Virus record (IMG/VR): IMGVR_UViG_3300033463_000008
Strand: one strand, 5' to 3'
Source: a virus
Lineage: Duplodnaviria; Caudoviricetes
Length of the DNA stretch: 64,000 bases
The notes beneath the pieces were generated by a model. That model was not told the DNA's origin and did not search any database. It saw nothing but the letters and a program-made list of their open reading frames with translations. The translations under genes and the position numbers were made by a program. The number at the start of each line of letters is the position of its first letter. Within the stretch, counting starts at the first letter, position 1. Shown here piece by piece: positions 34,425 to 59,522 of the stretch.

Positions 34425-34620
34425 TGGCAATGATTTAAAAATTATGAACTACCCACCGGCTAAAGACCGGTGGGTTTCAGTAACCACCGGTGCAACCAGT
34501 TGAATTTCCCGCATCACAGCACCACTGCTTTTTAGGTCGTTAAGACGGTCATCCACAGTTGGGTTCTCCGCAAGGCATAGCGGTCGCAAGACCACGGCTT
34601 CCCCGGTTCGCGGGGTACCT
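34425..34620 (-). ncRNA. predicted TnpB omegaRNA/reRNA (overlaps tnpB 3' end; guide from flank)
   Basis: Established TnpB architecture; RE hairpin ending GGGTAGTTCAT; boundaries approximate. Confidence 0.55.
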
Positions 34621-35720
34621 TCATTATCTAGTATTCTAAGACCTTCATCAAGTATGTTCTTGGCGGCATTCCAGTCCCTATCTATTACGCTACCACATTC
34701 TAGACATATCCACTCGCGTTCGCTAAGTTTCAATGTATGGTATCTATGCCCACAGTTGTTGCATAGTTGCGAACTGGGGAAGAACCGTCCTACCTTAACG
34801 ACAGTACGGTTATGCCATTGAGCCTTGTACTCTATCATCTTAGTTAGTGTACCGAGTGCCTGATTGGCCAACGCACCAGCAAGACAGCGGTTCTTCAGCA
34901 TTCCCTTTATGTTAAGGTTCTCCATGCAGATTATGTCATAATCTCGGACTAACCTGTGTGATACTTGATGAAGGAAGTTATTCCTTCTGTTACCCAGTTT
35001 TTCATGGGCTGCAGCAAGTTGAATACGGACTTTCTCGTATCGACTGCCGCCTTTCTTCGCCTTTGCGAGTTTCCTCTGCAAATGCCTAATCTTTCGTTCC
35101 GACTTCTTATCGAAATGTGGATTCTTAATCACTTCTCCGTTGGACATCACGATGGACGACTTGATACCGAGGTCGATACCCACACATTCGCCAGTATGTT
35201 CCATTTCCGGCACATCAACATCACAACAAATAGAACAATAATAGTCGCCCTTTCTGCTCTTCTTTACGGTGACATGATAGATTTTAACAATATTTTCGTG
35301 TTCAAATGTCTTGCCGAAACGGCACTTAATTGCACCAACTTTCGGCAGTACAATGGAATTGCCGACTATTAGTTTCTTAATATCCTTGTGACACATAGCA
35401 TTCCGGTAACTCTGTTTGTCCTTCTTGGACTTGTATCTTGGATACTTGGATTTGCCTGCAAAGAAGTTCTGATAGGCTTGGTTCATATCCATATAGGCAT
35501 TAGCCAGTCCTTGCGAGTCGGCTTCTTTCAACCATTCCCATTCTTCCTTAAAAGACTTCAATTTCGGCTGAAAGGACATCTTGGTCTCTTCGTAGATATA
35601 TGACTTAATTCTAAGGCACTGGTTATACACGAAACGACAGCAACCGAAGGTCTTCGCGAAAAATACCTTCTGCGCTTTGTTCGGATATAGCTTGATTTCG
35701 ATGCCTTTCTTAACTATCAT
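34449..35720 (-). CDS. tnpB: TnpB RNA-guided endonuclease
   Basis: KLYPNKAQ..FGCCRFVYN HTH, RuvC GIDLG / MENL / DRDWNAAKNI, CNNC..CLEC Zn finger. Confidence 0.95.
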   Translation of the reverse strand: MIVKKGIEIKLYPNKAQKVFFAKTFGCCRFVYNQCLRIKSYIYEETKMSFQPKLKSFKEEWEWLKEADSQGLANAYMDMNQAYQNFFAGKSKYPRYKSKKDKQSYRNAMCHKDIKKLIVGNSIVLPKVGAIKCRFGKTFEHENIVKIYHVTVKKSRKGDYYCSICCDVDVPEMEHTGECVGIDLGIKSSIVMSNGEVIKNPHFDKKSERKIRHLQRKLAKAKKGGSRYEKVRIQLAAAHEKLGNRRNNFLHQVSHRLVRDYDIICMENLNIKGMLKNRCLAGALANQALGTLTKMIEYKAQWHNRTVVKVGRFFPSSQLCNNCGHRYHTLKLSEREWICLECGSVIDRDWNAAKNILDEGLRILDNEGTPRTGEAVVLRPLCLAENPTVDDRLNDLKSSGAVMREIQLVAPVVTETHRSLAGG

Positions 35721-35729
35721 ACGAAAAAA

Positions 35730-35830
35730 CCTACCGGAACTGGTCCTTCCGGTAGGATACAATGTACCTAAGTACATTTTAAACTCTTCTGCGATGGCAA
35801 GGACCAGTTGCCTTCGTATATCAGTTTATA
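35730..35830 (-). promoter_or_regulatory. late promoter + kissing-hairpin leader of tnpB
   Basis: TATAAACT (35830-35823), hairpin loops CUGGUCC and GGACCAG complementary. Confidence 0.65.
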
Positions 35831-53388: not shown

Positions 53389-53454
53389 GATATTACCTCG
53401 GTCATAGTTTATAGTTTCGGTTGCCATTTTAGGTATTTTTGCTATATTTCTCGC

Positions 53455-55143
53455 ATGGATCTCCAAAAGTTGTTTGATGAATTATCGCATAAAGACTCTG
53501 CCGCATCTGAGAACTCGCGTGTTGATACTAATGGCGCGGCTGTTGATGCGATTTCCGCCATTGAAGTTGAACCTAAGGATGATACTGTTAACGAATGCAT
53601 GACGGAAGATCCGCCTCCGCCTCCCCCTAAGGGAGCTCCGCTTGCCGAAAAGGTATTTGAACCGGCACCTGATATTTTTAATTTGTTTGATTCTGAAACC
53701 AAAGAAATCAAGGAGCCGGAAGAAACATCGAAAGAATCTGCACCGAAGCAGAAACTATTGACCAAGGATGATTTGACCGAGGACCAGAAGTCGGCTTTGG
53801 AATATATCAATTCCTTCATGGAGAGCGATTGCCGCCAGATGGTGCTTTGTGGTCCGGCTGGTACTGGTAAGACCTCCTTGGTGAATGTTCTTCTTGATGA
53901 ATTGGACAAGAAAAACATATCGTACGTGTGTACTGCACCGACCAACAAGGCTGTTGAAGTCATTGCAAAGCGCACTAATCGTCAGTTTGACCGTACCATT
54001 TATTCTCTTTGTGGATTGAAGCTTGTTGACCTTGATGACAAGGAACCGTATCTGGAACGGAATGGCGAATCCGCACTTGGTGAATATGACATTATTATAA
54101 TTGACGAAGCTTCAATGGCTGGAACTGAACTGTTGCGGAATATTGAAGCTAACCTGGTCGAATTTAGTTACATAAAGGTTATCTATGTGGGTGATCCGTG
54201 TCAGATTCCTGCTGTGGAAGACAGCAACCGTGGACTGTTGCAGTCTCCTGTTTTCAATCTGAAATATGGCTTCATGCTTAGCAAGGTGATGCGTACGGCA
54301 CTTGACAACCCGATTATGCGCACTGTCACCATGATGCGCCAGCATATTACCCAGCCAGGCGATTATTTTGACCATGTTACTGAGGTTGGTGAATCTGGCG
54401 GTATCTACTTCTACACTGAACGCAGTGAGTTTATGTCGAAAGTGTACGAATACTTCACTTCCGATGCTTACAAGGAAGATACCGACTACGCGCTTGCGAT
54501 TGCGTATCGCAATATTTCCGTGGATGCGCTCAATAAATGTATTCGCCGTCATAGATATCCTGGTGTAGAAGCTGAATATGTAGAAGGTGAAGAATTGCGC
54601 ATCTCCCGGGGTTACCGCAGGATGAACAAGACTGACAGGCGTGGGAGGGTTCGATATGATGAAGAGCAGGTTTACAGCATGGAGGAACGTGTAAAGGTCC
54701 TCAATGTGATAGACATGCCTGATGGAGATCCGGCATATCATATTGGGTGCTACAAGTTGACTGTGGTCAATTTCCGTGCACTTCCTGGACATCGCAAGCA
54801 ATGTACGGCCTACGTAGTTAAGCCATCCGAACAGGAAAAACTGAATAAGTTGAAGGCTGACCTTGCTGCCGAATGCCGTGAACGAGCCAAAGAACTTGGC
54901 CAGATGGGGCGACATAAGTACACCAAGAAAGAAGCTTGGGAGCCATACAACAAGCTTAAAAATAACTTTATGTATGTTGGCTATATCTATGCCATGACAG
55001 TATATAAGGCACAAGGTACTACTGTACAAAATGCCTTTGTGGTTGAACGTGACATGAATGTATGCTCTGACGTTATTTTGCGCAACAAATTGAAATACAC
55101 TGCATTTACGCGTGCAGCCAAGGAATTGCACGTTCTCGACTAG
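53455..55143 (+). CDS. Dda/RecD-like SF1B helicase
   Basis: GPAGTGKT, APTNKA, IIDEASM, GDPCQIP, YAMTVYKAQG, YTAFTRA. Confidence 0.9.
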   Translation: MDLQKLFDELSHKDSAASENSRVDTNGAAVDAISAIEVEPKDDTVNECMTEDPPPPPPKGAPLAEKVFEPAPDIFNLFDSETKEIKEPEETSKESAPKQKLLTKDDLTEDQKSALEYINSFMESDCRQMVLCGPAGTGKTSLVNVLLDELDKKNISYVCTAPTNKAVEVIAKRTNRQFDRTIYSLCGLKLVDLDDKEPYLERNGESALGEYDIIIIDEASMAGTELLRNIEANLVEFSYIKVIYVGDPCQIPAVEDSNRGLLQSPVFNLKYGFMLSKVMRTALDNPIMRTVTMMRQHITQPGDYFDHVTEVGESGGIYFYTERSEFMSKVYEYFTSDAYKEDTDYALAIAYRNISVDALNKCIRRHRYPGVEAEYVEGEELRISRGYRRMNKTDRRGRVRYDEEQVYSMEERVKVLNVIDMPDGDPAYHIGCYKLTVVNFRALPGHRKQCTAYVVKPSEQEKLNKLKADLAAECRERAKELGQMGRHKYTKKEAWEPYNKLKNNFMYVGYIYAMTVYKAQGTTVQNAFVVERDMNVCSDVILRNKLKYTAFTRAAKELHVLD

Positions 55144-56302: not shown

Positions 56303-56332
56303 TGATATCATAGCAATTTTGTTGCCATAAGG

Positions 56333-56363
56333 ACCGCCGGGGCCTCAGGGTTCCGGCGGTTTT
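56333..56363 (+). terminator. intrinsic terminator
   Basis: ACCGCCGG-loop-CCGGCGGT + T tract. Confidence 0.7.
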
Positions 56364-56399
56364 GTTGCCACCCGAATCATAAAATGCTACATTTCCACC

Positions 56400-56540
56400 A
56401 TGGAATACCAAAAGCTATTATCATTCATCCACCCATCGGATAAAGAAACCGCCCAACGGTGGGCAAAGATTTTGCTCAATTCCTGCTATGACAGGATTGT
56501 AGCCAGTTCTAACTTTAAACTCTACGAGGTAAAGAAATAA
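56400..56540 (+). CDS. 46-aa small ORF, apparently leaderless, upstream of IF3
   Basis: TGCTACATT-6 nt-ATG; ends 1 nt before IF3 ATG; not in ORF track. Confidence 0.45.
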   Translation: MEYQKLLSFIHPSDKETAQRWAKILLNSCYDRIVASSNFKLYEVKK

Positions 56541-56541
56541 T

Positions 56542-57222
56542 ATGGGATTCAAGAACAATTTCTACATCTCCGCATCGACAATCATGCTGATTGGCGAAGA
56601 TGGAAAACCTATGGGCACCATGAACCCAGGCAAGGCTAAGGCGATTGCCAATGACCGAGACCTTCCATTGGTTTGTGTCAATCCGTCGGGAAATCCGCCT
56701 GTGTACCGTCTTGGTAACCCGCCGAAGGATGGTATCACTACGGCAACGGTTCGTTTGATGGGTGAAAACGGCGAACAGCTTGGCGTGGTGACAAGTGCGG
56801 AAGCTCGCAAGATTGCCGAGGAACGCGACCTTGACATCATCGTTGTAGCTGTCAACCAGGACCCGCAGGTTGCACGCCTTGGCGACCGTGGCAAGTATGA
56901 ATACGAGCAGAAGAAAAAGAAGCGTGAAATGGAAAAGAAGAACCGTGCAGCAGCCAAGGCTACCGAAGTCAAGGATCTCCGTTTCCCGAGCAACGGTGGT
57001 GATGCTGACCGTGAACGCATCTTGAAGCAGGGTGATGAATTCATGGAACAGGGTCATCCGGTAAACTTCTGCATTCGATTCCCGGGACGTAAGGTTTCTC
57101 ACTGCGACGATGTGATTGAGCGTACCAAGGAAGAAATGAATACGACTTTGACTCACGGTGTAATTTCGAAGATTAGCCGCGCCGGCAACAGTTTCACCAT
57201 CTCCTGCATGCCAAAGAAATGA
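56542..57222 (+). CDS. infC: translation initiation factor IF3 with duplicated N-terminal domain
   Basis: Two IF3-N units (LIGEDGKPMG..DLPLVCVNP..PPVYRL; LMGENGEQLG..DLDIIVV..PQVARL), KYEYEQKKK linker, IF3-C VKDLRF..RFPGR. Confidence 0.85.
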   Translation: MGFKNNFYISASTIMLIGEDGKPMGTMNPGKAKAIANDRDLPLVCVNPSGNPPVYRLGNPPKDGITTATVRLMGENGEQLGVVTSAEARKIAEERDLDIIVVAVNQDPQVARLGDRGKYEYEQKKKKREMEKKNRAAAKATEVKDLRFPSNGGDADRERILKQGDEFMEQGHPVNFCIRFPGRKVSHCDDVIERTKEEMNTTLTHGVISKISRAGNSFTISCMPKK

Positions 57223-57971
57223 TTATTGAAGCTACAAACCGTTTTGTCTTTACAGAAGTTGCCCGCATGCTGAAGGAAGAGTGCGGTGGCCGGCCTGAAT
57301 TTGCCGACACTGTATTCATCCTCGGTCATGTAGATTCTCGTTGTACCCTGTCAGGTATGCGCAAGAAGTATCCTAACAAGAAACTCGTTGTATACCAGTT
57401 GGAACAGATGTATGACGGATGCAAGTATGCCAATCCGCATGTATTCGAATGGCTTCGTGGTGCAGACGAGGTATGGGACTATGACTTGGACAATATCGAC
57501 TGGCTTGCCAAGAAGGGCATCCGTACTTCATTCCATCCGATGCATTACGCAAGCACTTTGCGCGACGTACCAAGCGTGGAAAAGGATGTCGATGTCCTGT
57601 TCTATGGCTTTCTGACCGAGCGTAGGTCCAAGCTGCTTACTCAGCTTGCCAATGCCGGCTGCAACAAGTGGGCAACGACAATCACCATGGGCATTTCCGG
57701 CGAGAACCTGGCCAAATGGATCGGACGCTCCAAGATTATCCTGAACATCCACGCATACGATAACAACAACCGTCAGGAACAGGTGCGCATGTTCTACCCG
57801 GTAATCAACGGGGCATGTGTCGTTTCCGAGCAGAGTGCCCGTAACTACCTTGACGGCTGTATTACCGAATGTCCGTTGAAGTACCTCCCGGAAACCATAG
57901 ACAACATCCTCAAGAATGACATGTGGAAGAAGCTCGGTGATAACGCTGTCTATAACTTCATGAGGCGATAA
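57219..57971 (+). CDS. GT-B-like glycosyltransferase
   Basis: DVLFYG..ERR, SKIILNIH, EQVRMF..G.CVVSE. Confidence 0.65.
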   Translation: MIIEATNRFVFTEVARMLKEECGGRPEFADTVFILGHVDSRCTLSGMRKKYPNKKLVVYQLEQMYDGCKYANPHVFEWLRGADEVWDYDLDNIDWLAKKGIRTSFHPMHYASTLRDVPSVEKDVDVLFYGFLTERRSKLLTQLANAGCNKWATTITMGISGENLAKWIGRSKIILNIHAYDNNNRQEQVRMFYPVINGACVVSEQSARNYLDGCITECPLKYLPETIDNILKNDMWKKLGDNAVYNFMRR

Positions 57972-58262
57972 TCAACTACCCACGGGTATAAAGACCCGTG
58001 AGTTTGGGGTAACTCAGACTCATAGTTGATTAGACTCAGTGAAGCAGAGAAATCTGCTGAACTACGTTAGGAAGGTCATAACACCTACGGATGTACGGTC
58101 AAGTCTGTAGCTCTGTTGAATGTCATTAAACAGTCCTGATGGGTAGGGACAGTGTGGCGTTCATGACAAGCCTTCCTAACATTGTCGATGACCACCCACA
58201 GGGAGTAATCCCTGCATTACCTATTAAGTTAGGTTAAAAAACAACGAAAGGATAACGACTAG
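57971..58262 (+). ncRNA. IscB omegaRNA (HEARO-type) scaffold
   Basis: ~290-nt structured region starting ATCAACTACCCAC, closing TAGTTGAT, CTACGTT and ACATTGTCGA motifs, directly upstream of iscB. Confidence 0.85.
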
Positions 58263-59522
58263 ATGGTCTATGTACTGAACAAATACGGCAACCCTCTGAT
58301 GCCTACCACTAGGCACGGCAAGGTCCGTCGTCTGCTCAGGAAAGGTCTCGCGGTTGTTGTCGATTACCGTCCATTCACCATTCAGCTTGCTTACGACACG
58401 CCGAACGGCGTGCAGGAGGTCAGTCTAGGAGTAGACGCGGGTACGAAGCATGTAGGTTTCTCCGCCACTACCAAGAAGAAGGTACTTTTCGAAGCAGAAT
58501 TACTGCTGAGGTCGGATATCGTGGAGAAGCTATCCACGCGAAGGGAGTTCCGTCGGACCAGAAGGAACAGGAAAACTCGCTACCGCAAGTCCAGGTTCCT
58601 GAACAGGACCAAGAAGCCAGGGTGGATTGCGCCTTCCGTACGGCAGAAGGTGGATTCCCATATATACTGGATTTCGAAGATATGTAAGATTTTACCTATC
58701 GGGGAGATAACGGTGGAGACGGCACAGTTTGATATTCAACTGTTGAAGGCCCAGGAACAGTGCCTTCCGTTGCCGCATGGAACCGACTACCAGAAGGGTG
58801 AACAGCTCGGATTTTCTAACGTAAGGGAATACGTGTTGTTCCGGGATGGGCATAAATGCCAGTGCTGTAAGGGCAAGTCCAAGGACAGGAAGCTGCGGGT
58901 CCACCATATCGAAAGCAGAAAGACAGGTGGAGATGCACCTAACAACCTCATCACGTTGTGTTCGGAATGCCATGCTAAGTATCATAGGGGCGAAATTAAG
59001 CTGCCTAAGAATGTCAGCCGCGGGGCTTCCTTGAAGGATGCTGCCGTAATGGGCATCATGCGGAAGTCGGTGTTCGGTCAACTGGATAAACTGTTCGGTG
59101 ATGCAGTTCCTTGCCACGAGACGTACGGCTACATCACCAAGTATGCCCGCACCAAGGCAGGCCTTCCGAAGGACCATACCATAGACGCCCGTTGCATCAG
59201 TGGCAATACGGGTGCCGAGTCCGACGGGCATTACTGGATTATCCGCAAGTTGCGTGCCAACAACAGGCAGCTGCACAAGGCATCCATACTCAAGGGATGC
59301 ATTCGGAAGAACAACCAGGCACCTCGGGAGGTACATGGATATAGACTGATGGATTATGTTGTTTATGCCGAACGACCTTGCTTCGTGAATGGCCGCAGGC
59401 AGTCGGGATACTTCTCTCTATCGGATATTTCCGGACATGTCCTTGCCGGTTCGGTGAACTATAAGCACCTTAACTTAATTAACCACAACAACACTAATAT
59501 AATGGAAACGAGAGAACTATAA
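58263..59522 (+). CDS. iscB: IscB RNA-guided endonuclease
   Basis: PLMP motif, RuvC LGVDAG / VETAQFD / HTIDA, RRxRR bridge helix, HNH HHIESR..NNLITLC..H. Confidence 0.95.
   Translation: MVYVLNKYGNPLMPTTRHGKVRRLLRKGLAVVVDYRPFTIQLAYDTPNGVQEVSLGVDAGTKHVGFSATTKKKVLFEAELLLRSDIVEKLSTRREFRRTRRNRKTRYRKSRFLNRTKKPGWIAPSVRQKVDSHIYWISKICKILPIGEITVETAQFDIQLLKAQEQCLPLPHGTDYQKGEQLGFSNVREYVLFRDGHKCQCCKGKSKDRKLRVHHIESRKTGGDAPNNLITLCSECHAKYHRGEIKLPKNVSRGASLKDAAVMGIMRKSVFGQLDKLFGDAVPCHETYGYITKYARTKAGLPKDHTIDARCISGNTGAESDGHYWIIRKLRANNRQLHKASILKGCIRKNNQAPREVHGYRLMDYVVYAERPCFVNGRRQSGYFSLSDISGHVLAGSVNYKHLNLINHNNTNIMETREL

Follow-up and report, generated by a model that had tools for sequence, protein, structure and literature searches.

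The IF3 locus and its phage

The window analysed here is the whole 64,000-nucleotide stretch of the viral record IMGVR_UViG_3300033463_000008, which carries genes for a family B DNA polymerase, a large terminase, a portal protein and a DnaB-like helicase. Its source is a T4-like jumbo phage of the bovine rumen, and DNA of the phage is present in bovine gut samples. Relatives were found as contigs of 224–355 kb with 37–47 tRNA matches, and no tRNA gene was found within the 64-kb window itself; the tRNA and promoter counts given below rest partly on these relatives.

The segment of interest lies on the forward strand and comprises, in order, a G+C-rich hairpin followed by a T run (56330..56363), which is probably the terminator of the upstream gene, a host-type promoter of the form TTGCCA-17-TACATT (56365..56393), a 46-aa open reading frame (56400..56540), and a gene for the translation initiation factor IF3 (56542..57222) that starts with ATG and encodes 226 aa arranged as N1-N2-linker-C. 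A 250-aa glycosyltransferase-like gene (57219-57971) overlaps the IF3 stop codon (ATGA) and is also found 3' of IF3 in several relatives.

The promoters of the phage follow the consensus TTG[AC]CA-17-TA[CT][AT]TT. Across 21 Fibrobacter genomes this pattern has 801 matches, against few for a reversed control, and a slightly narrower pattern gives 1–9 matches per genome in 12 Prevotella genomes. Assemblies of Fibrobacter contain binned contigs of related phages, as does one Prevotella assembly. The promoter consensus and the contig binning point to Fibrobacter, a main fibre digester of the rumen, as the likely host; to our knowledge, Fibrobacter phages are little studied. Two short DNA matches in Fibrobacter were considered as possible CRISPR spacers and rejected because they are intergenic and FtsH-like sequence.

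Domain organization of the phage IF3

The protein was cut into three parts, each of which was scanned against Pfam separately. Residues 7-57 match IF3_N with 47.5 bits and residues 64-130 match it with 79.2 bits (cut-off 26.9), so that the first unit is itself an IF3_N domain, and the C-terminal part matches IF3_C with 28.5 bits (E 1.5e-6), which is below the cut-off of 34.8. Scanned as a whole, the protein scores 129 bits with the NCBIfam model TIGR00168 infC (cut-off 60), and the phage profile PHROG 9787 matches it with an E-value of 9e-32 over residues 62-225 only, leaving N1 outside the profile. An AlphaFold model (pLDDT 82) contains a strand-strand-helix-strand-strand unit twice, followed by a long helix of 25 residues (116-140) and then the IF3-C fold. 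The top Foldseek matches of the model are IF3 structures, and its C-domain fold compares with 1tig at a TM of 0.83 by target. The N-N-linker-C layout, the divergent C-domain and the ATG start (56542) that an earlier, sequence-only reading of this DNA had proposed are all borne out by these scans and the model.

N1 and N2 are identical at merely 19 of 56 positions, and an assembly duplication is therefore ruled out as their source. The canonical IF3 has exactly one N-domain; this rule fails in 23 phage proteins, which therefore represent a variant and not canonical members of the family. A shape search of the Atlas with the model returned ordinary IF3 clusters alone, and no longer fused forms of phage IF3 were found, although the latter is weak evidence. 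RNA contigs of three rumen metatranscriptome runs cover portions of the gene; they could reflect DNA carry-over and tell neither the start, the strand nor the level of the transcript. We conclude that the product of 56542-57222 is a real, selected variant of the known initiation factor IF3.

Family, origin and selection

The N-N-C layout extends over 23 phage proteins, down to 39% identity. About 20 full-length relatives with 39-98% identity share it, and a profile search added three double-N proteins as well as six relatives with a single N-domain (P0037, P0039, P0040 and P0042-44), among which P0042 sits among T4-like genes. In a tree of N-domains, which rests on 56 columns and in which many forks lack resolution, all 23 phage N1 domains form one clade (support 99/95), the nearest rows to this clade are the single-N phage-type domains, and the bacterial N-domains group apart (96/83). 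The position of a single N1 clade beside the single-N phage domains indicates that the duplication occurred once, within this phage lineage.

Estimates of dN/dS from six genes, in which synonymous sites are nearly saturated, are 0.07 for N1, 0.10 for N2, 0.05 for the linker and 0.035 for the C-domain. N1 is thus under purifying selection. The genes next to IF3 differ between clades, with the exception of a helicase.

Three further observations came from the same searches. The sequence LR756511.1 was considered as a double-N candidate and set aside, as its 96% query coverage in two pieces within 486 nt fits a single-N protein matched twice. P0016, on a 908-base contig, fuses the N-terminal region of RNase Y to the linker and C-domain of phage IF3 through a YEYEQ-like stretch that both share, and this fusion is probably an assembly chimera. 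In the P0022 lineage, a 383-aa gene with faint KOW/Spt5 matches (L004:5858-7009, reverse strand) is convergent with IF3.

Division of the tRNA contacts between N1 and N2

In bacterial IF3, residues R25, Q33 and R66 touch the elbow of the initiator tRNA, and R25 is invariant (PMC9723500). N2 (56731..56886) has the equivalents of all three (R71, Q79 and R112). The linker that follows (56887..56964) is basic and helical, with 11 basic versus 4 acidic residues, is four residues longer than that of E. coli, and carries K118 and Y121 at the positions of K72 and Y75. The tRNA-elbow residues and the linker Y75 equivalent are therefore all present in N2 and the linker, and none is present in N1. Across the family, the R25 equivalent is absent from N1 in 23/23 proteins and present in N2 in 23/23, and the Q33 equivalent is also missing from N1 of the window protein.

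The extra domain N1 (residues 4-59; 56551..56718), for which the Pfam match, the residue table, the dN/dS values and the tree all provide evidence, has an invariant G-x-A-K patch of its own at the helix start. It is weakly basic (6 basic and 4 acidic residues) and without a linker helix, and its tether to N2 varies from about 8 to 30 residues. AlphaFold left the N1-N2 orientation unfixed (pTM 0.44-0.46). By cryo-EM, the single N-domain is normally seen to leave the 30S platform and relocate to the tRNA elbow (PMC5037330); N1, which lacks the tRNA contact, could remain as an anchor on the 30S subunit.

The C-domain and the RFPGR motif

The divergent C-domain (56965..57219) retains the equivalents of K94, D106, G132, R133, H137 and P176 in the window protein, and the equivalents of K72, Y75, K94, D106, G132 and R133 are present in all 23 double-N proteins. 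One helix of the domain is remodelled (Y107R, V109R, K110I/L/M); in the window protein the K110 equivalent is I160, with an invariant R159 one residue earlier. In E. coli, K110 is required for 30S binding. The equivalents of R99 and R168 are also missing in the window protein, but we dropped this loss as specific evidence since both positions vary in bacteria, Fibrobacter included.

Aligned with E. coli IF3, the window protein has RFPGR (57076..57090) where E. coli has RFRGR (129-133), and P181 (CCG, 57082-57084) stands at the position of R131. Proline is found there in 13/13 members of the clade of the window protein and in P0022, with F, S, N, T, K or R in other phage relatives; arginine is retained in the clade of L011, L012, P0018-21 and P0035 and in P0036, all of which have the N-N-C layout. 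The proline codons across six relatives are CCG, CCT and CCC, with synonymous sites near saturation. Among 112 more distant IF3s with the motif none has proline at this position, and Fibrobacter IF3 has arginine. On the tree, whose backbone lacks resolution, the proline would have one or two origins. [quoted passage not shown] The R131P-equivalent C-domain supports the proposal of the sequence-only reading that the protein is a re-engineered initiation factor.

The upstream region and the 46-aa ORF

The hairpin at 56330..56363 has a folding energy of -29.6 kcal/mol (z -4.0; 0/200 shuffles), and similar hairpins are found in L001, L009, L010 and L155. The same promoter motif precedes IF3 or the 46-aa ORF in L001, L009, L011, L012 and L153-L155. 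In the window, the ATG of the 46-aa ORF lies 6 nt past the -10 box, and with the transcription start placed by this promoter spacing the ORF is probably leaderless. It is kept in L001-3 and L009 with a dN/dS of 0.13, and is therefore a real gene; Pfam and Atlas searches with it gave no match. Its stop codon ends 1 nt upstream of the IF3 ATG, and a Shine-Dalgarno-like site for IF3, GAGGT (56526..56530), lies inside it at a spacing of 11 nt, compared with 5-7 nt at two other genes of the window. The close stop and the poorly spaced Shine-Dalgarno (SD) site would suit translational coupling of the ORF to IF3.

The ORF is missing from L010, L153-L156, L004, L011 and L012, even though the IF3 proteins of L155, L153 and L010 are 84%, 85% and 78% identical to that of the window. 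In the relatives without the ORF, IF3 has its own promoter, a short leader and an SD site directly upstream. What had been noted as an apparently leaderless ORF thus stands as a gene, probably leaderless, but it is confined to one subclade; it is a later insertion and not a family-wide control element.

The ATG start of IF3 itself had been set against the AUU that infC commonly uses for autoregulation. This contrast is of little weight, because infC of Fibrobacter appears to start with TTG, and the single-N phage IF3s also begin with ATG, as does every phage IF3 member examined. A structured leader was not found at the IF3 start (folding z -0.2), and the proposed bias to structured-leader mRNAs finds no support there.

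Leaderless promoters and initiator tRNAs

We counted a promoter as leaderless-type if an ATG lies 6 or 7 nt past the -10 box. Such promoters make up 19/60 in five IF3-bearing phage sequences versus 92/801 in Fibrobacter (P=6e-5), where the five sequences are related and their counts consequently non-independent. The Fibrobacter share (about 11%, genomes G005-G026, a few matches being on mis-binned phage contigs) suggests that leaderless genes exist in Fibrobacter itself. As a control without IF3 we used G119 (IMGVR_UViG_3300028832_000001), a complete jumbo phage of 415,750 bp that has Fibrobacter-type promoters and no IF3 match; its terminase matches lie at three separate places. G119 has 6/31 leaderless-type promoters, and the excess in the IF3-bearing phages over it is not significant (P=0.32). 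Phages with P131 have 10/24 and those with R131 have 10/42 (P=0.17), and G002, which keeps R131, has 9/27. The motif and the excess over Fibrobacter thus favour the proposed bias to leaderless mRNAs and the other two comparisons do not: the promoter data fail to tie leaderless genes to IF3, P131 or N1, nothing links the N-domain duplication to start-site choice, and a specific leaderless bias of the phage IF3 is unproven. A search for phage genes with a non-canonical start, which was swamped by shadow ORFs, gave no convincing case.

Excess wild-type IF3 inhibits leaderless mRNAs (PMC9031893), and a strict phage copy would therefore harm leaderless genes such as the helicase at 53455. Given this inhibition and the many leaderless-type phage genes, a lenient factor would suit these phages. 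The helicase in question is PIF1/RecD-like (53455-55143) and probably leaderless, with its ATG 6 nt past a TTGCCA-16-TATATT promoter (region 53421-53457 of the window).

An initiator tRNA with all three G-C pairs in the anticodon stem is present in 24 Fibrobacter genomes. The initiator-type tRNA of G002 has a C1-U72 mismatch, A11-U24 and the middle G-C pair alone of the three; its anticodon stem reads A29-U41/G30-C40/U31-G39 (G002:C1:56058-56131, reverse strand). In G001, an initiator-like tRNA-Met (G001:C1:192247-192319, forward strand) has A29-U41 and C33, with two of its three G-C pairs retained. Matches to the G001-type arm were obtained in 27 viral stretches, a large share of which are initiator-like tRNAs, and the A-U/G-C/G-C variant is also known from some bacteria (PMC5389676). 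Co-occurrence of this variant with IF3 was considered and rejected, as four other phage records with the arm lack an IF3_N match. G119 carries the same A-U/G-C/G-C arm as G001 without IF3, and G002, whose tRNA is the most deviant, nevertheless keeps R131. The link of IF3 to 3GC-deficient initiator tRNAs is suggestive only.

A proposed low-stringency initiation factor and its alternatives

The explanation that we favour, with a probability of roughly 45%, is that the protein is an IF3 of low stringency that has gained an anchor domain, and that it would loosen initiation generally. The host-type promoter would drive the phage IF3, which is therefore probably expressed early. [quoted passage not shown] By competing with host IF3 it would lower the bar for all suboptimal starts, to the benefit of phage genes that are leaderless, have a weak SD site or are translationally coupled, and of initiator tRNAs with broken G-C pairs; initiation would be loosened in general, and phage mRNA would not be singled out. 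The duplication would split the jobs of the N-domain, with N2 holding the tRNA elbow and N1 serving as an additional, tethered anchor whose likeliest site is close to the 30S platform and which might raise residence relative to host IF3; this role of N1 is the weakest step of the scheme. Several observations argue against it: R131 is kept in the L011 clade and P0036 with the same layout, the IF3-less G119 has both leaderless-type promoters and the G001-type tRNA arm, the K110 equivalent is replaced, and N1 is weakly basic, with a position that the AlphaFold model leaves open.

It is rather unlikely, in our estimate, that the phage IF3 is a plain supplement, which adds subunit-splitting or recycling, or replaces host IF3 after shut-off, while its proofreading residues drift and N1 persists because it aids folding or stability or slightly improves affinity. 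Such drift would account for the free variation of position 131 across the phage lineage (P, F, S, N, T, K, R) and leaves it less clear why P181 is fixed in 13/13 members of its clade, with three codons in six genes at near-saturated synonymous sites. The single-N relatives show that N1 is dispensable in the wider lineage; within the double-N family, N1 has an invariant G-x-A-K surface and has lost R25 in all 23 proteins, which speaks against this reading. G119 has leaderless genes without any IF3, as a plain supplement would allow, and reviews (PMC7824862) suggest that phage IF3 acts in ribosome rescue or as a general support.

A stronger form of the low-stringency scheme, in which N1 on the platform and N2 on the tRNA elbow would bind at once and out-compete host IF3, and which together with the R131P C-domain and a 3GC-deficient tRNA would form a phage low-stringency path favouring leaderless early mRNAs, seems to us doubtful. 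If this form were true, a phage would be resetting start-site selection by means of a core initiation factor. We regard as more improbable still that the factor selectively steers ribosomes to those phage mRNAs that are leaderless or have a structured leader, while the leaderless 46-aa ORF, coupled to IF3, replaces the AUU codon as a feedback sensor. The R131P-like motif, the share of leaderless-type promoters above that of Fibrobacter, and the 46-aa ORF, which is probably leaderless, is under selection, ends 1 nt before the IF3 ATG and contains the poorly spaced SD site, are what one would expect of such steering. Nevertheless, the close relatives L155, L153 and L010 do without the ORF and have a promoter and SD site; P131 is unlinked to the leaderless share, which shows no significant excess over G119; the IF3 start has no structured leader; and with about 11% of the same promoters leaderless-type in Fibrobacter, the effect would not be selective for the phage. 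Finally, it is very unlikely that N1 docks a partner other than the ribosome (an RNA or protein of the phage, or a defence factor of the host directed at IF3 or tRNA) or that the protein is a dominant-negative factor blocking host initiation, for although N1 has no tRNA contact, a variable tether and a new conserved patch, and the C-domain helix is remodelled, every core residue that faces the ribosome has been retained, as have the tRNA-elbow residues in N2, and no partner gene travels with IF3.

Comparison with known IF3 systems

Bacterial IF3 (InfC; TIGR00168; PF05198 and PF00707; PDB 5lmn and 8jsg) has the same fold of N-domain, helical linker and C-domain, and shares with the phage protein the equivalents of R25, Q33, R66, K72, Y75, K94, D106, G132 and R133. 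Identity to E. coli IF3 is about 33% over N2-C, and the phage protein differs from it in the extra N-domain, the linker longer by four residues, R131P, K110I, Y70R and a C-domain below the Pfam cut-off. The phage protein shares its substituted site with the R131P allele of E. coli IF3 and with the IF3 of mycoplasmas, and mycoplasmas pair the altered 131 with initiator tRNAs short of the full 3GC pairs (PMC11775629), to which those of G001 and G002 appear similar. These factors, however, have one N-domain and are the sole IF3 of the cell, whereas the phage IF3 would work alongside the strict factor of its host. Mitochondrial IF3 likewise has an altered RFRGR motif and terminal additions and serves a translation system with leaderless mRNAs (PMC11775629), but its additions are extensions of about 30 residues, whereas the phage addition is a duplicated folded domain.

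IF3 genes are known from jumbo phages (PMC7162821, PMC7824862 and PMC11895373). The single-N phage IF3s (PHROG 9787; WNN14575.1 of Sharanji, an E. coli jumbo phage; the huge phages of Al-Shayeb 2020) likewise occur in jumbo genomes. PHROG 9787 has 168 positions and a single N-domain, compared with the 226 residues of the window protein with its additional N1, and in their available parts PMC11895373, PMC7162821 and PMC7824862 mention no doubled N-domain. More broadly, no description of a doubled IF3 N-domain was found in a literature search that took in few subscription papers.

The bacterial paralog P0095 (GCA_030841365.1) also has two IF3_N domains above the cut-off and an IF3_C domain. Its N2 groups with the adjacent canonical infC (97/85), and its origin is therefore independent of the phage N-N-C proteins; unlike them, its N1 keeps R25, and R131 is kept as well. 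The paralog is found on one contig only, where it follows rpsF-ssb-rpsR-infC as a second infC (L085:4358-5750). The N-N-C layout is thus rare but not restricted to phages.

Phage IF3 has been listed for years, and we found no functional test of it in the literature. The present analysis newly contributes the R131P subclade, the presence of R25 in N2 with its loss from N1, a control phage lacking IF3 and a bacterial double-N protein of independent origin. One lineage with single-N and double-N proteins and with R, P, F or S at position 131 amounts to a natural experiment, and the family could reveal whether phages retune start-site fidelity. The split N-domain, with one copy having and one lacking the tRNA contact, bears on the question of platform versus elbow for the IF3 N-domain.

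Other elements in the window and its relatives

A HEARO/omega-type RNA (Rfam RF02033, 137 bits) lies at 57971-58199 of the window and is followed by an IscB-like ORF with RRXRR and HNH domains (58263-59522). RNA contigs in several variants from rumen metatranscriptomes match the RNA region. The whole unit (57971-59522) is missing at this place in L001-3 and is therefore a recent insertion. An IS605 OrfB/TnpB gene (34449-35777, reverse strand) has counterparts in G001 and G002 at about 90% identity, although the core genes are far more diverged; it is a mobile element that moves among these phages. G001 also has a tmRNA (L053:10092-10450) with the tag ANDAFACRMAA among about 50 tRNA genes.
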